A DNA stretch of 63,966 nt, counting the filler, from Candidatus Babelota bacterium (GTDB lineage: Bacteria > JAGOBX01): assembly GCA_017999075.1 (NCBI GenBank). It is 10 parts of 10 records of this genome, joined end to end, with 100 filler letters (N's around TTAATTAATTAA, not from the genome) between each part and the next. Parts side by side here need not be neighbours in the genome. Positions count along the whole stretch, not along the records: positions 19,659 to 26,083 come from JAGOBX010000210.1; 9 more parts are not named here. One strand, 5' to 3'. Positions 19,659 to 26,083 of the stretch are shown piece by piece (within the stretch, counting starts at the first letter, position 1; every line of letters begins with the position of its first letter). The position numbers and the translations under genes are program-made. Under the pieces are notes generated by a model. It was not told the origin of the DNA and made no database searches. It saw only the letters and a program-made list of their open reading frames with translations.

Positions 19659-19775
19659 AATAAGACCAATTATGTCTGGAAGATGAAATTTTCTTGCTGA
19701 TAAAGGGGCTATCAGCACTATCAACATTACTAATGCGAATATTAAAACAGGATCCTGAACAGGTAAAATGATCAT
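19659..19775 (-). CDS. Cation:proton antiporter (CPA2-like), N-terminal fragment at the contig edge
   Basis: Not in the ORF track. MIILPVQDPVLIFALVMLIVLIAPLSARKFHLPDIIGLI matches the start of Na+/H+ or K+/H+ exchanger family proteins. Confidence 0.7.
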
Positions 19776-19804
19776 AAAATTTTTGGTATACTTTATTTTA
19801 ATAA

Positions 19805-19833
19805 AGTTTACTTAACTGCAATGATTTTGTCAA
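19805..19833 (-). promoter_or_regulatory. Sigma70-type promoter for the antiporter
   Basis: TTGACA-17 bp-TAAACT on the minus strand. Confidence 0.55.
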
Positions 19834-19919
19834 ATGTTTTTACGAATAAAAAATAAATTTGTTCAAATTATTATTGAAAATTTAGTAATAATAAATTGAA
19901 TAATTTGTTATGGTGATTA

Positions 19920-20190
19920 ATAAGAGGAGGGCGGCCTGATGTATTGAGAGTTTCACACAATGTCAGACCGCCCGTATTAACTCGAACCCAAGCACGTACT
20001 GATGATCTGTCTACAATATAACAACTTATCAGATCATAGTAATAAAACCTGAAAACCAGTAACCTTAAAATAAGAAAACTTAAATAAGAACATCCCTAAA
20101 AGTACCAGAAAACAAGTAACCCAGAAACGAGTAACCTATAAAAAACTGAGAATGTAACTTAATAACTACAATCAGTTATTTAAGTTACAC
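19920..20190 (-). ncRNA. Candidate structured small RNA of about 270 nt
   Basis: Starts just downstream of a TTGACA-17-TATATT promoter; hairpins at 20153-20189, 19997-20041 and 19929-19973 (GC-rich); three GGTTACTNGTTT(T)C repeats; no credible ORF. Confidence 0.6.
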
Positions 20191-20194
20191 TTTT

Positions 20195-20263
20195 AATATA
20201 GCAAATATAAATTGAGTTGTCAATGCCTAATTATATAATATAATTCTAATCTTTTATTGTCAA
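20195..20263 (-). promoter_or_regulatory. Tandem sigma70 promoters 40 bp apart
   Basis: TTGACA(20263-20258)-17-TATTAT(20240-20235) and TTGACA(20223-20218)-17-TATATT(20200-20195). Confidence 0.7.
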
Positions 20264-20459
20264 TGTTTTAAAAAATAGGGTTCTATTGTATTAGTAAATT
20301 ATTTTTTTAATATATGTATATATTATATTTTTTTAGAAAAATTTACTGCTTATCAATATATCAATTTTGTAAAAAAACGAAATATTTTTTGATTAAAAAA
20401 ATGTTTAGTTATTCAAAACATTAAAATCCAATTGTGTCAATTGAAAACCTGATGAATTT

Positions 20460-23400
20460 TTAAAAATCCGATAATTTCTGCCGCAGTTCATCGAAATGAA
20501 TTTTGCGGATAAGAGTTTCGCCTGAAGTAATATTAGAATCGGTCCATACAGGAGTTTGTGCTTTTGCTGCGGTTGCTGTCTGTTCCTCTGCAGAGCGCAG
20601 TTCGTCAATATGCGTTTTACGTATAAGTGTTTGACTTGCAGTAATTACAGGGTCAGTCCACGAAAAAGCTGAAAGTCCGCGCAATTTACGCGCAAAATTA
20701 ATTTCATCGCGCAATTCGTCGATGTGTATTTTTCTTATAAGCGATTGTCCTGTTGTCAGCTGAGTATCAGTCCATACTCTGCCGCCGATTTTAAAATATC
20801 TTGATGTAGATGTATCGCTGTATAAATCGCTGTCGTATGCAACCACTGTCCATCTATAAACAGAATCGTTTAAATTGACTTGTGGATTGAAATATACTGT
20901 ATTTCCGTAAGCAGTAGAATCAGCACCGCTTGCGCTGAATGTATCATAACTGCCGGATTTATAATAATAAAAACCGCGAGTGTCAGTTGTAGAATTAGCA
21001 AGCAGAACATTTCCATAGCCGCTGTCAACATAAATCAAAAAATGTAATGCATTGCTGTCAGCATCTGCAGGACATTGCCATATTAAGTTCGGCCGCAGAT
21101 TAAGCGTTCGTCCATAATTTTCAAAATCAGTATAAGGCGCAGGCAGATTTACAGGAGTTAATAATATCGGTGTTTCAGGTTTTGTATTATACAACGCATA
21201 AACCATAAAACTTGCTGAATACCAAGTCCTGTTTTCAAACCGGTAACCACCGGCAACCGGTATCTGATGACTATCAAAAGCAACTATTCGGTAGTAATAA
21301 ATTCCCGTAGATGTATATCCAGAATCAACATACTCGGTGTCTTGGGTGTTTTCGGTGGTGTGTATTAAAAACGCTTCCCAATTATCCGTATCGCCGTTTG
21401 CTCTGACTTGAGCCGCAGAAGCGCGATATATTCTGTATCCTGTTAATCCCGTCAATCCTGTTCCATCTTCATCTGCTGCCGGTTTAGTCCAGCGTAAAGT
21501 TACCTTTTTTAAAACCGAAGTATCTGCGTCTATAAAACTCGGCGCAGCAGGCGCGACTGTATCTGCGTTTGCAGCAGTATCTATTTCCGCTGTCCTGAAC
21601 GGCGACCACAAAACCGAGCCGCTAATAACGCTAATCTTCGCGGATATTGATGCAGAATCAGTTGTATTCCAATAATTGTATCTGAAATCAAAAGTATTAT
21701 TTACATTATTATAAACTGAATAGTTCGGATTGGTTATTGATGTCTGAATATTATTTTTTGTAAATGTATCCCCGGACGACGAGTTAGTCAGATAAATTTG
21801 ATAATTAGTATTATTTTTAATATTATTTTGCGTAAAATAATTTGAAGAGACATTATCCAAATAAAAACCTTTCTCATTATTGCCAATAATTAAATTTCCT
21901 GTAAAATAATTATTATTTGAATTATTGCTTAAATAAAATCCGGTTTGACTATTCGATTTTGAAACATTACTTTTAAAAATATTGTTTGAAGCATTTGAAA
22001 ATTGAAAACCGTTCTGTAAATTATTACTCGCAGTGTTAGTTTCAAAAATATTATTTGAAGACGCCGAAAAATTAAAACCAGCCCAAGTATTATAATTTGC
22101 AGTATTATTTGATGCAATATTATTCGAACCATTCACAGAAATGCCGTGATTATTATTATAATTCGATATATTATTTGTTAAAACATTGCAGCCGTTATTG
22201 CTGTCAAGGCGAATCCCGTGTCCTTGAGTGTAATTAACCGAATTTGAAACAAATGTATTTGTATCGGAATTCTGATAAGTATAAATTCCAGTATTGTTTG
22301 AATCAGATCTGTTGTTTGAAAAATAATTAAACGAACTTCCGTTGTAAGCGTAAATCCCGTAAAACGGATTTGAAATTACTGAATTGCCTGATAAAATGTT
22401 ATAAGGAGAATTATTCAGATAAATGCCGTAATAATTTTTAAACACATAACAATTAGAAATCGTATTTGAACAACTTCCGCTCGCTAAATAAATTCCAGCT
22501 CCAGCGCCGCCGTTTTTACCGCAATATTCAATTTTTATATTTTCAATTACCGAAGTATCCGAGTTATTAAAATAAATTCCATAATAGCAATCAAAAATCC
22601 GCAGATTCGCTATCCGTAAATTCGCCAGTCCATTTGCATATATTCCGTAAAGAGTGGTTGCTGTCGAATCTCCGGCCGGATCAATAATCGTAGTTGCTGA
22701 ATCTGCGCCGATTAAGGAAGTCCAGTTATTTGTTATTACTACGGTTTCAGCGTAAGTTCCGGCATCCACATAAATTGTACAGCCACTATATGCTCGCAAT
22801 AATGCTTGAGTTATTGTTCTGAAAGGATAGAGCTGATTACCCATATTCAAATTATCGTTTCCAATATTTGATGTAAAAGAATCATTTGCAGTGGACGCAT
22901 CATTCACATAAAAAACAGGACCATTATAAAGAGTCGTATCGCTGATTATATTTGAATTTGCTCCGGTTCCGCTTGAATTATAAGCGCGGACACGGTAATA
23001 ATATACTGTATAAGTCGTTAAGCCGGTAACGCTATAAGTTGTAACATTCCCAACATCTAAATTATTATAACTGCCGACAAAACTGCCGAACCCGGCGTCA
23101 GTCGAAAAATCTAAACGATAGCCGGTCGCGCCGGTTGTTGTTCCCCAATTGGCTGTCAAACTGCCTGTATTAATATTTGTTGCGGCTGCTGCAGTTGGCG
23201 GCGATGGTAATGTATAAGTTGTGACGGTATTGGAATTGCTTCCTGTTCCGGTTGTATTAATCGCTCTGACGCGGTAGTAGTAAGTTGTTCCAGCAGTCAA
23301 TCCGGTTACGCTGTAAGTCGTAACATTACCAACATCAAGATTATTATAACCGGTAACAAAACTTGAAAAATCGCTTGCAATCGAAACATCAAGACGATAA

Positions 23401-24677
23401 CTTGTTGCGCTGGTTACCGAACCCCAGTTAGCGCTAAAACTTGTGGTTGTTATAGAATTTGCAGCAGCAGCGGTCGAAGCTGCAGGTAATGTTAATAAAT
23501 TTTGCGAGCCGGAATTTGAACTTGTTCCTCCTGTGTTATATGCGCGGATGCGGTAATAATATGTTGTTCCGGCTGTCAAACCTGTTACACTACGTGAAGT
23601 AACATTGCCGACATCAAGATTATTATAACCGGTAGCATAGCTTGAAAAATCGCTTGCAGTAGAAACATCAAGATAATAGCCGGTCGCGCCGATCGCAGCG
23701 CTCCAATTCGCATTAAAACTTGTTTCTGCAATACTTGAAGCTGCATTTGAAGTAGGAGCATTTGGAACTGTCCAAAACGATACATTAGAACCATAAGCCG
23801 TTCCTTGAGTATTTGTGGCATACGCGCGGACATAATACAAAGTTCCGGCTGTTAATCCTGTTAATGAGGAAGTGAACGCGCCTGTCGAACCTTTGGCTCC
23901 TAAAGTAGTATTTGAATTGGCAGTGGTCGGATTTGTAGAAGTATTCCAGCAATGTCCGTGTTGTGTTGGATTAGGCGAGCCGAGAGCAGTAACATTACCA
24001 TTGCCAGTTGCAGTAGTTGACGCTATTGAACTGACTGCTTGAGTGGTTACAGTAGGAACAATCGGTCCTGATGCGCCTATTGTTATTGATTGATTAAGAG
24101 TAGATTCATATGCCCACTCCTGAATTGAAATCAATGCGTATGTAAAATATCCTGGCGTGCCGCCGTCATAATCTGTCTGATAGTTGTATTTGACCCAGCC
24201 ATAATAATAATTTCCACTACCTGCGTCAAAACGGATACCTTGATAACTATTTGATCCTGACTGACTCTGAGGTCCTGCATATCTTGTCGGATTCCAGGAT
24301 AAAACATTGGCATTTATCGTCCAGTTTGAACCGGACGAAACTACATCGCCATAATTACCGTTACATACATGATTTGACATTATTGCGCCGAGATATGTTC
24401 TATGCGAAGCGTCATTACCTGCAGTTAATTGCTGTGAAATATTTGTTGTTGAATATGTCGGCGAAGTAGTTGTTGATGTTGTCCCGTTTGAATTAAGTAT
24501 AATACCAATATAAGTATGGTCAAGACCGCCGGAGCTGCCGGTTGCATTTATTGGTCCTGAATAATAATTTATTGCTCCGAAAGAAATTGTTGAATTTAAA
24601 ATTAAATTCAGAAGTAAAAAAATAATTATAAAAAAATAATTATAAAAATATGAAAAATTAAATCTTACGATTTTCAT
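20460..24677 (-). CDS. Large secreted/surface protein: FN3 repeats, NosD/CASH right-handed beta-helix, FN3/Ig-like domains and a C-terminal triple repeat
   Basis: Signal peptide; repeated GLTAGTTYYYRVRAYN FN3 units; Asn-rich GIYLxxSxxNTIxxN beta-helix repeats; three WTD...IRKxHxDELR repeats at the C-terminus. Confidence 0.85.
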   Translation of the reverse strand: MKIVRFNFSYFYNYFFIIIFLLLNLILNSTISFGAINYYSGPINATGSSGGLDHTYIGIILNSNGTTSTTTSPTYSTTNISQQLTAGNDASHRTYLGAIMSNHVCNGNYGDVVSSGSNWTINANVLSWNPTRYAGPQSQSGSNSYQGIRFDAGSGNYYYGWVKYNYQTDYDGGTPGYFTYALISIQEWAYESTLNQSITIGASGPIVPTVTTQAVSSIASTTATGNGNVTALGSPNPTQHGHCWNTSTNPTTANSNTTLGAKGSTGAFTSSLTGLTAGTLYYVRAYATNTQGTAYGSNVSFWTVPNAPTSNAASSIAETSFNANWSAAIGATGYYLDVSTASDFSSYATGYNNLDVGNVTSRSVTGLTAGTTYYYRIRAYNTGGTSSNSGSQNLLTLPAASTAAAANSITTTSFSANWGSVTSATSYRLDVSIASDFSSFVTGYNNLDVGNVTTYSVTGLTAGTTYYYRVRAINTTGTGSNSNTVTTYTLPSPPTAAAATNINTGSLTANWGTTTGATGYRLDFSTDAGFGSFVGSYNNLDVGNVTTYSVTGLTTYTVYYYRVRAYNSSGTGANSNIISDTTLYNGPVFYVNDASTANDSFTSNIGNDNLNMGNQLYPFRTITQALLRAYSGCTIYVDAGTYAETVVITNNWTSLIGADSATTIIDPAGDSTATTLYGIYANGLANLRIANLRIFDCYYGIYFNNSDTSVIENIKIEYCGKNGGAGAGIYLASGSCSNTISNCYVFKNYYGIYLNNSPYNILSGNSVISNPFYGIYAYNGSSFNYFSNNRSDSNNTGIYTYQNSDTNTFVSNSVNYTQGHGIRLDSNNGCNVLTNNISNYNNNHGISVNGSNNIASNNTANYNTWAGFNFSASSNNIFETNTASNNLQNGFQFSNASNNIFKSNVSKSNSQTGFYLSNNSNNNYFTGNLIIGNNEKGFYLDNVSSNYFTQNNIKNNTNYQIYLTNSSSGDTFTKNNIQTSITNPNYSVYNNVNNTFDFRYNYWNTTDSASISAKISVISGSVLWSPFRTAEIDTAANADTVAPAAPSFIDADTSVLKKVTLRWTKPAADEDGTGLTGLTGYRIYRASAAQVRANGDTDNWEAFLIHTTENTQDTEYVDSGYTSTGIYYYRIVAFDSHQIPVAGGYRFENRTWYSASFMVYALYNTKPETPILLTPVNLPAPYTDFENYGRTLNLRPNLIWQCPADADSNALHFLIYVDSGYGNVLLANSTTDTRGFYYYKSGSYDTFSASGADSTAYGNTVYFNPQVNLNDSVYRWTVVAYDSDLYSDTSTSRYFKIGGRVWTDTQLTTGQSLIRKIHIDELRDEINFARKLRGLSAFSWTDPVITASQTLIRKTHIDELRSAEEQTATAAKAQTPVWTDSNITSGETLIRKIHFDELRQKLSDF

Positions 24678-24921
24678 ATCAAAAAAATAATCCTTTTATC
24701 TTCCAAAATTAAAATATGGTTTTTCCTGTAAAATACCGCATGATATTTTTGATAAATAATAGTATTGAACTGATTATAAATATTTTTGTTTATTTATAAT
24801 AATATAATAGATATAATTATAAATTATTCAATGTTTTTTTAAAAAATTCAGTTTTTTTGTAAAAATAAGAACGTTGCTATGAGCACTTTTTAAATATATA
24901 ACAAAAATAAAAATTTAAATG

Positions 24922-24950
24922 TTGATATAAAGATATATTATATGTATAAT
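24922..24950 (+). promoter_or_regulatory. Sigma70-type promoter for the response regulator
   Basis: TTGATA-17 bp-TATAAT. Confidence 0.55.
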
Positions 24951-25033
24951 AAAATTAATACGAAACCATATGAATATTTTCATAATATAAATTTTAAAAT
25001 AATACAATAACAAAATAATCAATATATGAATTC

Positions 25034-26083
25034 ATGAAAAAAATACGTGTTTTTATTATAGAAGATGAAAAAGATACATTAAATATGTTAATCACATATT
25101 TGAAAAAAAATAGTTTTGAAGTAAGCGGATATGCTTTAAATGGAAATGATGCTATTCAAATTATAAAGAATAATCAATCAGATATAATATTAACTGATAT
25201 TGGGCTGCCAGGTGAGTTTGACGGAATTGAAACTATTGAAATAATTCAGCAGGAAAATGATATTCCAGTAATATTTATTACCGGATTTGATTCACAAGAT
25301 TTGATTGATAGAGCAAAAAAAATTAAGTATGCAACTTATCTGCATAAACCTATTGATTTAAATAATTTAAGCGCTGCAATTGAGATTGGATTATATCAAA
25401 AAAATTCGGATAATATTTTTATTAATTCAATTAGCGAAGCGTATTCTTATAATAAAATAATTTATAATAATAACAATATTCCAGCAGATTATATAATAAT
25501 TACAGTAAACGACAATTTTGCTAAAATATTAGGATTGGATAAAAAAAATATTTGCGGCAGAAAAGCGTCGGAACTATATGATTTGCAAAATGTGGAATTG
25601 AAAAATGATTTTTATAACTTGTTAAAAATATACTCAAACTTGAAACCGAATGGGGAAAAAAATGAGTTTGAAAGGTACTCCCCAATTACCAGAAAATGGT
25701 ATAAAATAATTACATATTCGCTAAAAAATGAATATTTTATAACATTAAGAAGTGATGTTACCGAATTAAAAAGAAAAGATAAGTATTTGCTTGAGTTTTA
25801 TACTTCATTACAGTTGATTCCAAGTATAGTTGTAATTACTGATGTTGATGGAAATTTTGAATTTGTAAATTCTGCATTTGAAAGGGTAACAGGATATATA
25901 ATTGCTGATGTACAGGGCATATCCACCAAAATTTTAAAATCCGAAAATTATGATCCTGGTTATATTAAAAATTTGTGGGATACAATAAAATCAGGAAATA
26001 TCTGGCGCGGGGAGTTTTACAACCGTAAAAAAAATGGAGAGTTATATTATGAATTTGCGATAATCGGTTCAATTAAAAATGAA
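25034..26083 (+). CDS. Receiver-PAS-PAS signalling protein, 3'-truncated (probable hybrid kinase or cyclase)
   Basis: IIEDE, ILTDIGLPG, FITG and KP receiver motifs; PAS segment ITDVDGNFEFVNSAFERVTGY...WRGEFYNRKKNGELY. Confidence 0.85.

Follow-up and report, generated by a model that had tools for sequence, protein, structure and literature searches.

Trans-acting small RNAs of the GcvB type are made from a strong promoter of their own, measure 200–300 nt, expose a single-stranded G/U-rich seed, end in a GC-rich hairpin and contain no ORF. Sponge RNAs of the CsrB/RsmZ type are likewise non-coding and strongly promoted and carry a repeated short word, in their case many GGA motifs that lie mostly in hairpin loops. 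The ToxI-like antitoxins of type III toxin–antitoxin systems combine a promoter with several short tandem RNA repeats of about 36 nt, a hairpin and a downstream gene, while 6S RNA, also non-coding, strongly promoted and about 200–300 nt in length, folds as a rod closed by both ends with a central bubble. The locus described here has features in common with each of these systems.

The locus lies in a metagenome-assembled genome of Candidatus Babelota bacterium (GCA_017999075.1, here G000; 594 contigs, 3.83 Mb, 87% complete, 2.6% contaminated, 30.2% GC). An initial annotation of the minus strand at positions 19920–20263 had proposed a structured RNA of about 270 nt with tandem promoters and a repeated motif, to be understood either as a stand-alone small RNA with a sponge-like layout or as a cis-regulatory leader of a cation antiporter. 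Positions refer to the window, by which we mean the whole stretch of DNA analysed (63,966 nt); it is a chain of contigs of this assembly joined by linkers of the form N44-TTAATTAATTAA-N44 and not one piece of the chromosome. The candidate is located on a 6425-nt contig, C351 (window 19659–26083). All the sequence parts named in the annotation were found in their places to within 1–3 nt, and the features of the locus, in minus-strand order, are as follows.

20460–24677, minus strand: gene for a 1405-aa secreted or surface protein with fibronectin-III and right-handed beta-helix domains.
20264–20459, minus strand: very AT-rich spacer past the stop codon of the 1405-aa gene, with a T-tract/A-tract immediately upstream of the distal −35 element (fold z −1.3).
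20263–20235, minus strand: distal promoter P2, TTGACA-17-TATTAT, 11/12 match.
20223–20195, minus strand: proximal promoter P1, TTGACA-17-TATATT, with a TG extended −10, 11/12 match.
20191–20151, minus strand: hairpin H1 at the putative 5′ end, formed by the near-perfect inverted repeat GTAACTTAAATAACT / AGTTATTAAGTTAC (−15.6 kcal/mol, z −5.5).
20150–20046, minus strand: G/U-rich, largely unstructured stretch with three GGTTACTNGTTT words at 20137–20122, 20121–20106 and 20065–20049.
20041–19997, minus strand: hairpin H3, core AUGAUCUG / CAGAUCAU (−11.0 kcal/mol, z −1.3, not significant alone).
19973–19929, minus strand: hairpin H4, GC-rich, with 11 bp at its base (GGGCGGUCUGA / UCAGGCCGCCC), a candidate 3′ end or terminator (−25.7 kcal/mol, z −6.4).
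19928–19916, minus strand: pyrimidine-rich tail UCCUCUUAUUAAU after H4, with 6 T in the first 10 nt.
19833–19805, minus strand: third promoter-like site (10/12 match) with the sequence TTGACA-17-TAAACT; the antiporter ATG follows about 30 nt downstream.
19659–19775, minus strand: start of the gene for a CPA2-type cation/proton antiporter (ATG at 19775), which the contig end cuts after 39 codons.

Read along the minus strand, the gene for the 1405-aa protein is followed by a 684-nt ORF-free spacer and then by the beginning of the antiporter, which we take, from our reading of its sequence, to be of the CPA2 type. ORF-free gaps in this genome have a median length of 53 nt and a 99th percentile of 527 nt, a value exceeded by the spacer. 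The antiporter continues on contig C490 as an 843-aa frame. The two contigs overlap by 235 nt with one mismatch (window 19659–19893 versus G000:C490:1–235), and evidently join, restoring the 843-aa gene; the contig break and the single mismatch suggest strain heterogeneity at this point. The sequence of the element is present in five public runs from two wastewater/activated-sludge studies, all of them DNA and none RNA. Four of these runs yielded short, low-depth, identical unitigs, with no spanning piece, no joints and no variants in the element. The 1405-aa protein belongs to a set of three paralogous surface proteins of about 1200–1400 aa in G000 (C117:5270–6298, C379:2564–3592 and window 20460–24677) that are 71–72% identical across the C-terminal 346 aa, and the C-terminal repeat of about 100 aa found in these proteins is common to many more proteins, both in G000 and in a relative of the same genus (G001).

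The two TTGACA-17 promoters that had been proposed to lie 40 bp apart on the minus strand were confirmed as sigma-70-type sites, each matching the consensus at 11 of 12 positions. The T-tract/A-tract upstream of the distal −35 may resemble an UP element. From the spacing, transcription from P1 would start near 20188–20190. A genome-wide scan returned 628 sites matching at 11–12 of 12 positions, 256 of them in the roughly 10% of the genome uncovered by ORFs of at least 120 aa. Strong intergenic sites were mostly found close to genes, 144 of 241 lying within 150 nt upstream of a same-strand ORF of at least 100 aa, and leaders are usually short (for 76/241 sites the nearest ORF starts at most 50 nt away); 49/241 are orphans located more than 300 nt from the start of any ORF of at least 100 aa. 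Promoter words of this quality (11/12) seem to predict real promoters in this genome. Tandem pairs are rare: only four same-strand pairs of sites matching at 11 or more positions and spaced 20–80 nt apart occur genome-wide, the candidate's pair among them. One of the other three lies within a coding region and two are immediately upstream of protein genes, presumably prepilin-peptidase-like and SerC-like by our reading of the translations.

Promoter-like sites are also present on the opposite strand, where TTGTCA-16-TATAAT (11/12) and TTGAGT-16-TATAAT (10/12) at 20212–20244 overlap the tandem promoters and face the 3′ end of the surface-protein gene; these may reflect the symmetry of AT-rich words. 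Elsewhere in G000, contigs C28, C300, C302, C434 and C71 carry strong promoter-like clusters distant from ORFs of at least 100 aa, together with the longest ORF-free gaps of the assembly (up to 1182 nt), and these clusters may belong to rRNA, tRNA or further non-coding RNA genes.

To assess the fold, we compared predicted minimum free energies with those of dinucleotide shuffles. For the 281-nt transcript, counted from the proximal −10, the predicted energy is −76.9 kcal/mol, compared with −54.9 ± 4.1 kcal/mol for the shuffles (z −5.3), and none of 200 shuffles folded as well. This signal comes almost wholly from H1 and H4, and the spacer flanking the unit is unremarkable (z −1.3 on either side). 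Both the minimum free energy and the centroid folds are a string of local hairpins in which the 5′ end pairs in H1 and the 3′ end in H4. H1 (41 nt), annotated as a long hairpin at the proximal start, was borne out at 20191–20151, and again none of 200 shuffles was equally stable. Its 3′ arm and the adjoining downstream segment resemble duplicates, and the suggestion that the 5′ GUAAC arm permits alternative folds holds to the extent that a downstream partner exists for H1 alone, although this pairing is weaker than that with the true partner (−13.1 versus −17.1 kcal/mol). The second hairpin, proposed at 19997–20041, is present as H3 but weak, with a z score of −1.3.

The terminal hairpin was also recovered, as H4 followed by UCCUCUUAUU (annotated as an anti-Shine–Dalgarno-like UCCUCUU), but it failed the terminator rule of 5 T in 8. 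The T run of the tail is broken by a C. H4 is listed among the GC-seeded hairpins of this genome with stems of at least 11 bp. Of the GC-seeded hairpins situated just past same-strand stops, 24 of 52 have at least 5 T in the tail, as compared with 44 of 192 of those inside coding sequence. Typical terminators in G000 consist of an A-tract, a GC hairpin and a U-tract. H4, which has no clean U-tract, may be said to fit this class loosely. Since the U-tract is broken and the terminator rule failed, partial read-through past H4 is plausible. The minus strand folds more stably than the plus strand over H1 (−15.6 versus −12.7 kcal/mol), H4 (−25.7 versus −20.8) and the whole unit (−76.9 versus −52.7). 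The plus-strand fold is nevertheless significant as well (z −4.3), as expected of inverted repeats, and structure alone is thus no proof of an RNA. Complementary to the H4 tail, the plus strand at 19916–19945 reads AAGAGGAGGG, 8 nt before ATG TAT TGA; this strong Shine–Dalgarno-like sequence before a two-codon frame is probably due to chance.

The annotation had described the stretch as devoid of ORFs and unlike any known RNA, and both statements held. No ORF of at least 12 aa with a Shine–Dalgarno sequence at a workable distance was found in the spacer, and a 19-aa peptide frame (MFLFKFSYFKVTGFQVLLL) was rejected because AGGG abuts its ATG. Searches of the whole window with Rfam 15 at gathering thresholds gave no match, and ARAGORN detected no tRNA or tmRNA gene in the window. 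When the threshold was relaxed to E values of up to 10 over positions 19700–20500, five sub-threshold matches were returned, the best scoring 20.8 bits against a gathering threshold of 80; four were to eukaryotic families (snoRNA, miRNA and spliceosomal RNA, including SmY) and one to a Salmonella small RNA.

Comparison with the systems introduced above gives resemblances in outline and differences in detail. The locus shares with GcvB-type RNAs the strong promoter, the length, the exposed G/U-rich stretch, the GC-rich end hairpin and the lack of an ORF, but it differs from them in having no sequence or Rfam match, no conservation, no clean U-tail and no enrichment of its complement at gene starts. 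Unlike CsrB/RsmZ RNAs, it places three GGUUACU words in unstructured sequence, contains a single AGGGA and has no Rfam match. ToxI differs in that the candidate has only about two copies of a 15–16-nt unit and is followed by the gene for an 843-aa membrane antiporter with its own promoter and not by an endoribonuclease gene. As for 6S RNA, canonical examples are found in G001 (67 bits) and in a relative of the same family (G002, 72 bits), but no RF00013 match was obtained in the G000 assembly. The G001 6S RNA aligns with the element over no more than 14 nt and has no counterpart in the G000 contigs. 6S RNA was therefore rejected as an identity for the element, which matches neither RF00013 nor the 6S RNAs of its lineage and folds as local hairpins rather than as an end-closed rod. 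Because both relatives carry 6S RNA and the G000 contigs lack it, the 6S gene of G000 most likely lies in the unassembled 13% of the genome.

The middle of the unit is distinguished by its repeats. All three copies of the annotated motif were confirmed, starting at 20137, 20121 and 20065, and these are the only occurrences of GGTTACTNGTTT in the 3.83-Mb assembly (3/3). The repeat region does not hold up as structured RNA, since its fold (104 nt) has a z score of −1.0; mean unpaired probability in the G/U-rich stretch is 0.27–0.55. Tandem Repeats Finder (TRF) assigns the region a period of 15 (a unit of 15–16 nt), 2.1 copies and a score of 50, and no run of three or more heptamer units is present. 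Short tandem duplications are common in this AT-rich genome, with 4700 TRF arrays scoring at least 30. The core word GGTTACT itself occurs 182 times in the assembly against about 390 expected from base composition.

Searches outside this genome placed the repeat in a wider context. Two adjacent motif copies (GGTTACTNGTTT twice) matched 75 metagenome loci, all of which proved to be heptamer or 14–15-nt tandem arrays with flanks unrelated to the element. A pattern of three GGTTACT words matched at least 128 loci in genome collections, mostly heptamer arrays, and among the matches listed the longest blastn match to the element was 31 nt. In blastn comparisons of array loci with the element, matches were confined to the repeat and the flanks were unrelated. 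Such arrays, which we take to be akin to the simple repeats of cyanobacteria (STRR-like), have in common with the candidate an intergenic location and a GGTTACT core followed by a GTTT(C)T-type word; unlike the heptamer arrays, however, the candidate has 2.1 copies of a 15–16-nt unit and one distant copy. We read the motif copies as a local tandem duplication of a slippage-prone word, for which a function would be possible but is unneeded.

The arrays are themselves widespread. Intergenic (GGTTACT)n, (GGTTACT GGTTTCT)n and 15-nt variant arrays were seen in many unrelated bacteria, the hosts among the matches listed including Bacteroidota, Cyanobacteria, Planctomycetota, Chloroflexota, a Clostridium and others, and one Metamycoplasmataceae MAG gave dozens of heptamer-array matches among those listed. 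Heptamer arrays are often followed by an inverted array, with which they would form long hairpins. The part of the literature covered by our search held no paper on such arrays or on the motif, and GGTTACTGGTTACT and GGTTACTGGTTTCT were absent among the matches listed. G000 has heptamer arrays of other units as well (AATTGTG, ACTGTCA, ATTGAAG and TGACTGACAACTGA; C51:14018–14211, C70:870–1010 and C480:1763–1917). It also contains a hairpin unit, TTTTCGGTGG-loop-CCACCGA(G/A)GA followed by CACCGA-type words, in three copies on C390 and on C83, C364 and C480; this unit is, to judge from its copies, a dispersed repeat family.

Taken together, the sequence features are unlikely to be due to chance, and we tentatively favour the interpretation that the unit is a stand-alone, species-specific, strongly promoted candidate small RNA gene, to which we give a probability of about 0.4. 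The stand-alone reading of the annotation is upheld in that the unit is non-coding, has two strong promoters, is bounded by significant hairpins, matches no known family and is single-copy. It is not supported by conservation, no homologue having been found in the genomes and collections searched. If this interpretation is correct, RNA polymerase would start at the two tandem promoters, with the proximal start at the foot of H1, and H1 would protect the 5′ end of the RNA. The transcript would then cross a single-stranded G/U-rich stretch of about 100 nt and end, at least partly, at H4, so that its predicted length is about 270 nt when initiated at P1 and about 310 nt when initiated at P2. As the likeliest working surface we regard the exposed G/U-rich middle, which contains the three GGUUACU words and might act in trans by pairing with C/A-rich mRNA segments or by binding a protein.

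We looked for a trace of such pairing at gene starts. The seed complement AGTAACC falls within −45 to +20 of candidate starts in 6 of 182 cases as against 13 of 182 for the sense-word control, so that this test, a weak one, gave no enrichment and no target signal. A 20-nt near-match on C123 was rejected as a target, being of the same sense as the RNA and inside a gene.

The candidate was next sought in other copies and other genomes. It is single-copy: the sole full blastn match in the 594 contigs (87% complete) is the element itself, which rules out a MITE or other multicopy repeat, and the next best match in its own genome is 37 nt long (E 0.014) and lies in the AT-rich promoter part. Sampling of the lineage is sparse, the 40 relatives searched comprising one of the same genus, one of the same family and one of the same class, with the rest sharing the domain only; relatives within the lineage are three other species (G001, G002 and G003). 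Blastn against the 40 genomes, including those of the same genus and the same family, revealed nothing similar, the best foreign match being 27–29 nt (E 0.006). We also built a covariance model of the 3′ domain only (H3, a small hairpin and H4; 126 nt, 126 positions, 39 pairs) and ran it on G000 to G003. In G000 it recovered the element and the reverse strand of the element, and nothing else; a match in G001 (18 bits, E 0.35) was rejected because it lies inside a 504-aa ORF. Plasmid and phage collections gave no blastn match. Pattern scans of viral sequences with the H1 arms gave none either, and the one match to the H4 arms was rejected as an unrelated phage hairpin. The sequence past the surface-protein homologues of G001 and G002 contains no such element, nor does that past the two G000 paralogues. 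Conservation and covariation, whose absence the annotation had named as counting against its proposal, are accordingly lacking in the relatives, plasmids, phages and pattern scans searched, there being no covariation to detect where no homologue was found.

This lack of conservation in any genome searched gives some weight to a somewhat unlikely alternative, namely that the spacer is functionless and arose by rearrangement, with chance promoter words, inverted repeats and a decaying tandem duplication, so that whatever is transcribed from it would be noise. Several observations fit such an origin: the antiporter and the surface-protein gene have other neighbours in the relatives and the paralogues, short tandem repeats abound in this genome of 30% GC, a proportion of its strong intergenic promoter-like sites are orphans (the 49/241 above), and words of the GGTTACT type form expanded microsatellites in many genomes unrelated to this one. 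Against it, two 11/12 sites stand on one strand, each with an extra strengthening feature, and the same strand then carries two hairpins with z scores below −5, one of them GC-rich in a genome of 30% GC. Moreover, the short median gap speaks for long spacers being retained for some purpose.

A further possibility, which we regard as unlikely, is that the unit is a structured 5′ leader (415 nt) of the antiporter mRNA, in which the tandem promoters would drive the antiporter and H4 would serve as a leaky or regulated stop, tuning expression in cis. The unit and the antiporter do have the same orientation, with about 150 nt from H4 to the ATG, and the lack of a clean U-tract after H4, its failure of the terminator rule, the 10/12 score of the third promoter and the weaker alternative partner of the H1 5′ arm, which makes a two-state fold conceivable, are in keeping with this idea. 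However, the antiporter has a candidate promoter of its own, as the annotation had stated: the separate 10/12 site between H4 and the ATG combines a perfect −35 with a usable −10 at a distance from the ATG that is typical of this genome. The orthologue in G001 (79% identity at the N-terminus) follows another gene after about 30 nt, and that in G002 (62%) has a spacer of about 130 nt beside a divergent gene, in both cases without the element; the same query found no antiporter orthologue in G003. Our reading of the sequence also shows no upstream complement to the H4 5′ arm that could act as an antiterminator, the upstream RNA being C-poor, and no Rfam cation riboswitch or leader family was matched even at E values of up to 10. 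The cis-regulatory leader offered by the annotation is consequently disfavoured, given that no comparable sequence precedes the orthologues in two relatives.

Control at the DNA level, with the H1 palindrome and the three GGTTAC repeats serving as operators for the tandem promoters or the antiporter, appears quite improbable. By manual count GTAAC/GTTAC occurs five times in about 140 bp, including a near-perfect palindrome with 14-bp arms over the putative +1, and the direct repeats are spaced 15–16 bp apart. The arms of the palindrome (14–15 bp with a loop) are, however, longer than those of usual operators, the repeats lie 55–140 bp downstream of the start, and 15–16 bp is not a helical repeat. 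The word GTAACTTA or its complement lies in non-coding sequence in 7 of 69 cases, which equals the background share, and two of those seven are at the candidate locus. No other GTAAC-N(0-12)-GTTAC palindrome was found in the non-coding DNA of G000, and this regulon test, again a weak one, showed no enrichment of GTAAC/GGTTAC words beyond background in other intergenic DNA. A response regulator encoded on C351, its frame cut by the contig end, has Pfam receiver and PAS domains only and no DNA-binding family.

It is highly improbable that the unit encodes a novel type of abundant regulatory RNA, restricted to this sparsely sampled lineage, in which three exposed GGUUACU(N)GUUU sites would sponge an RNA-binding protein or a set of RNAs while H1 and H4 guard the ends. 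The sponge-like layout of repeated sites that the annotation had envisaged has no support beyond the three words; these amount to a degenerate tandem duplication of small extent, and neither a target signal nor a partner protein goes with them.

The small RNA gene that we favour leaves current knowledge unchanged for the present and is a fairly ordinary small RNA candidate in a MAG, set apart only by the strength of its tandem promoters and by the poorly known lineage in which it occurs. In practice it would serve mainly to give transcript mapping a target, should metatranscriptomic data from wastewater communities of this type be obtained. If a discrete RNA is made from this locus, it would be a first regulatory RNA candidate for a lineage represented here by only four species genomes, and would provide an example of a young, species-specific small RNA gene born in a rearranged spacer.
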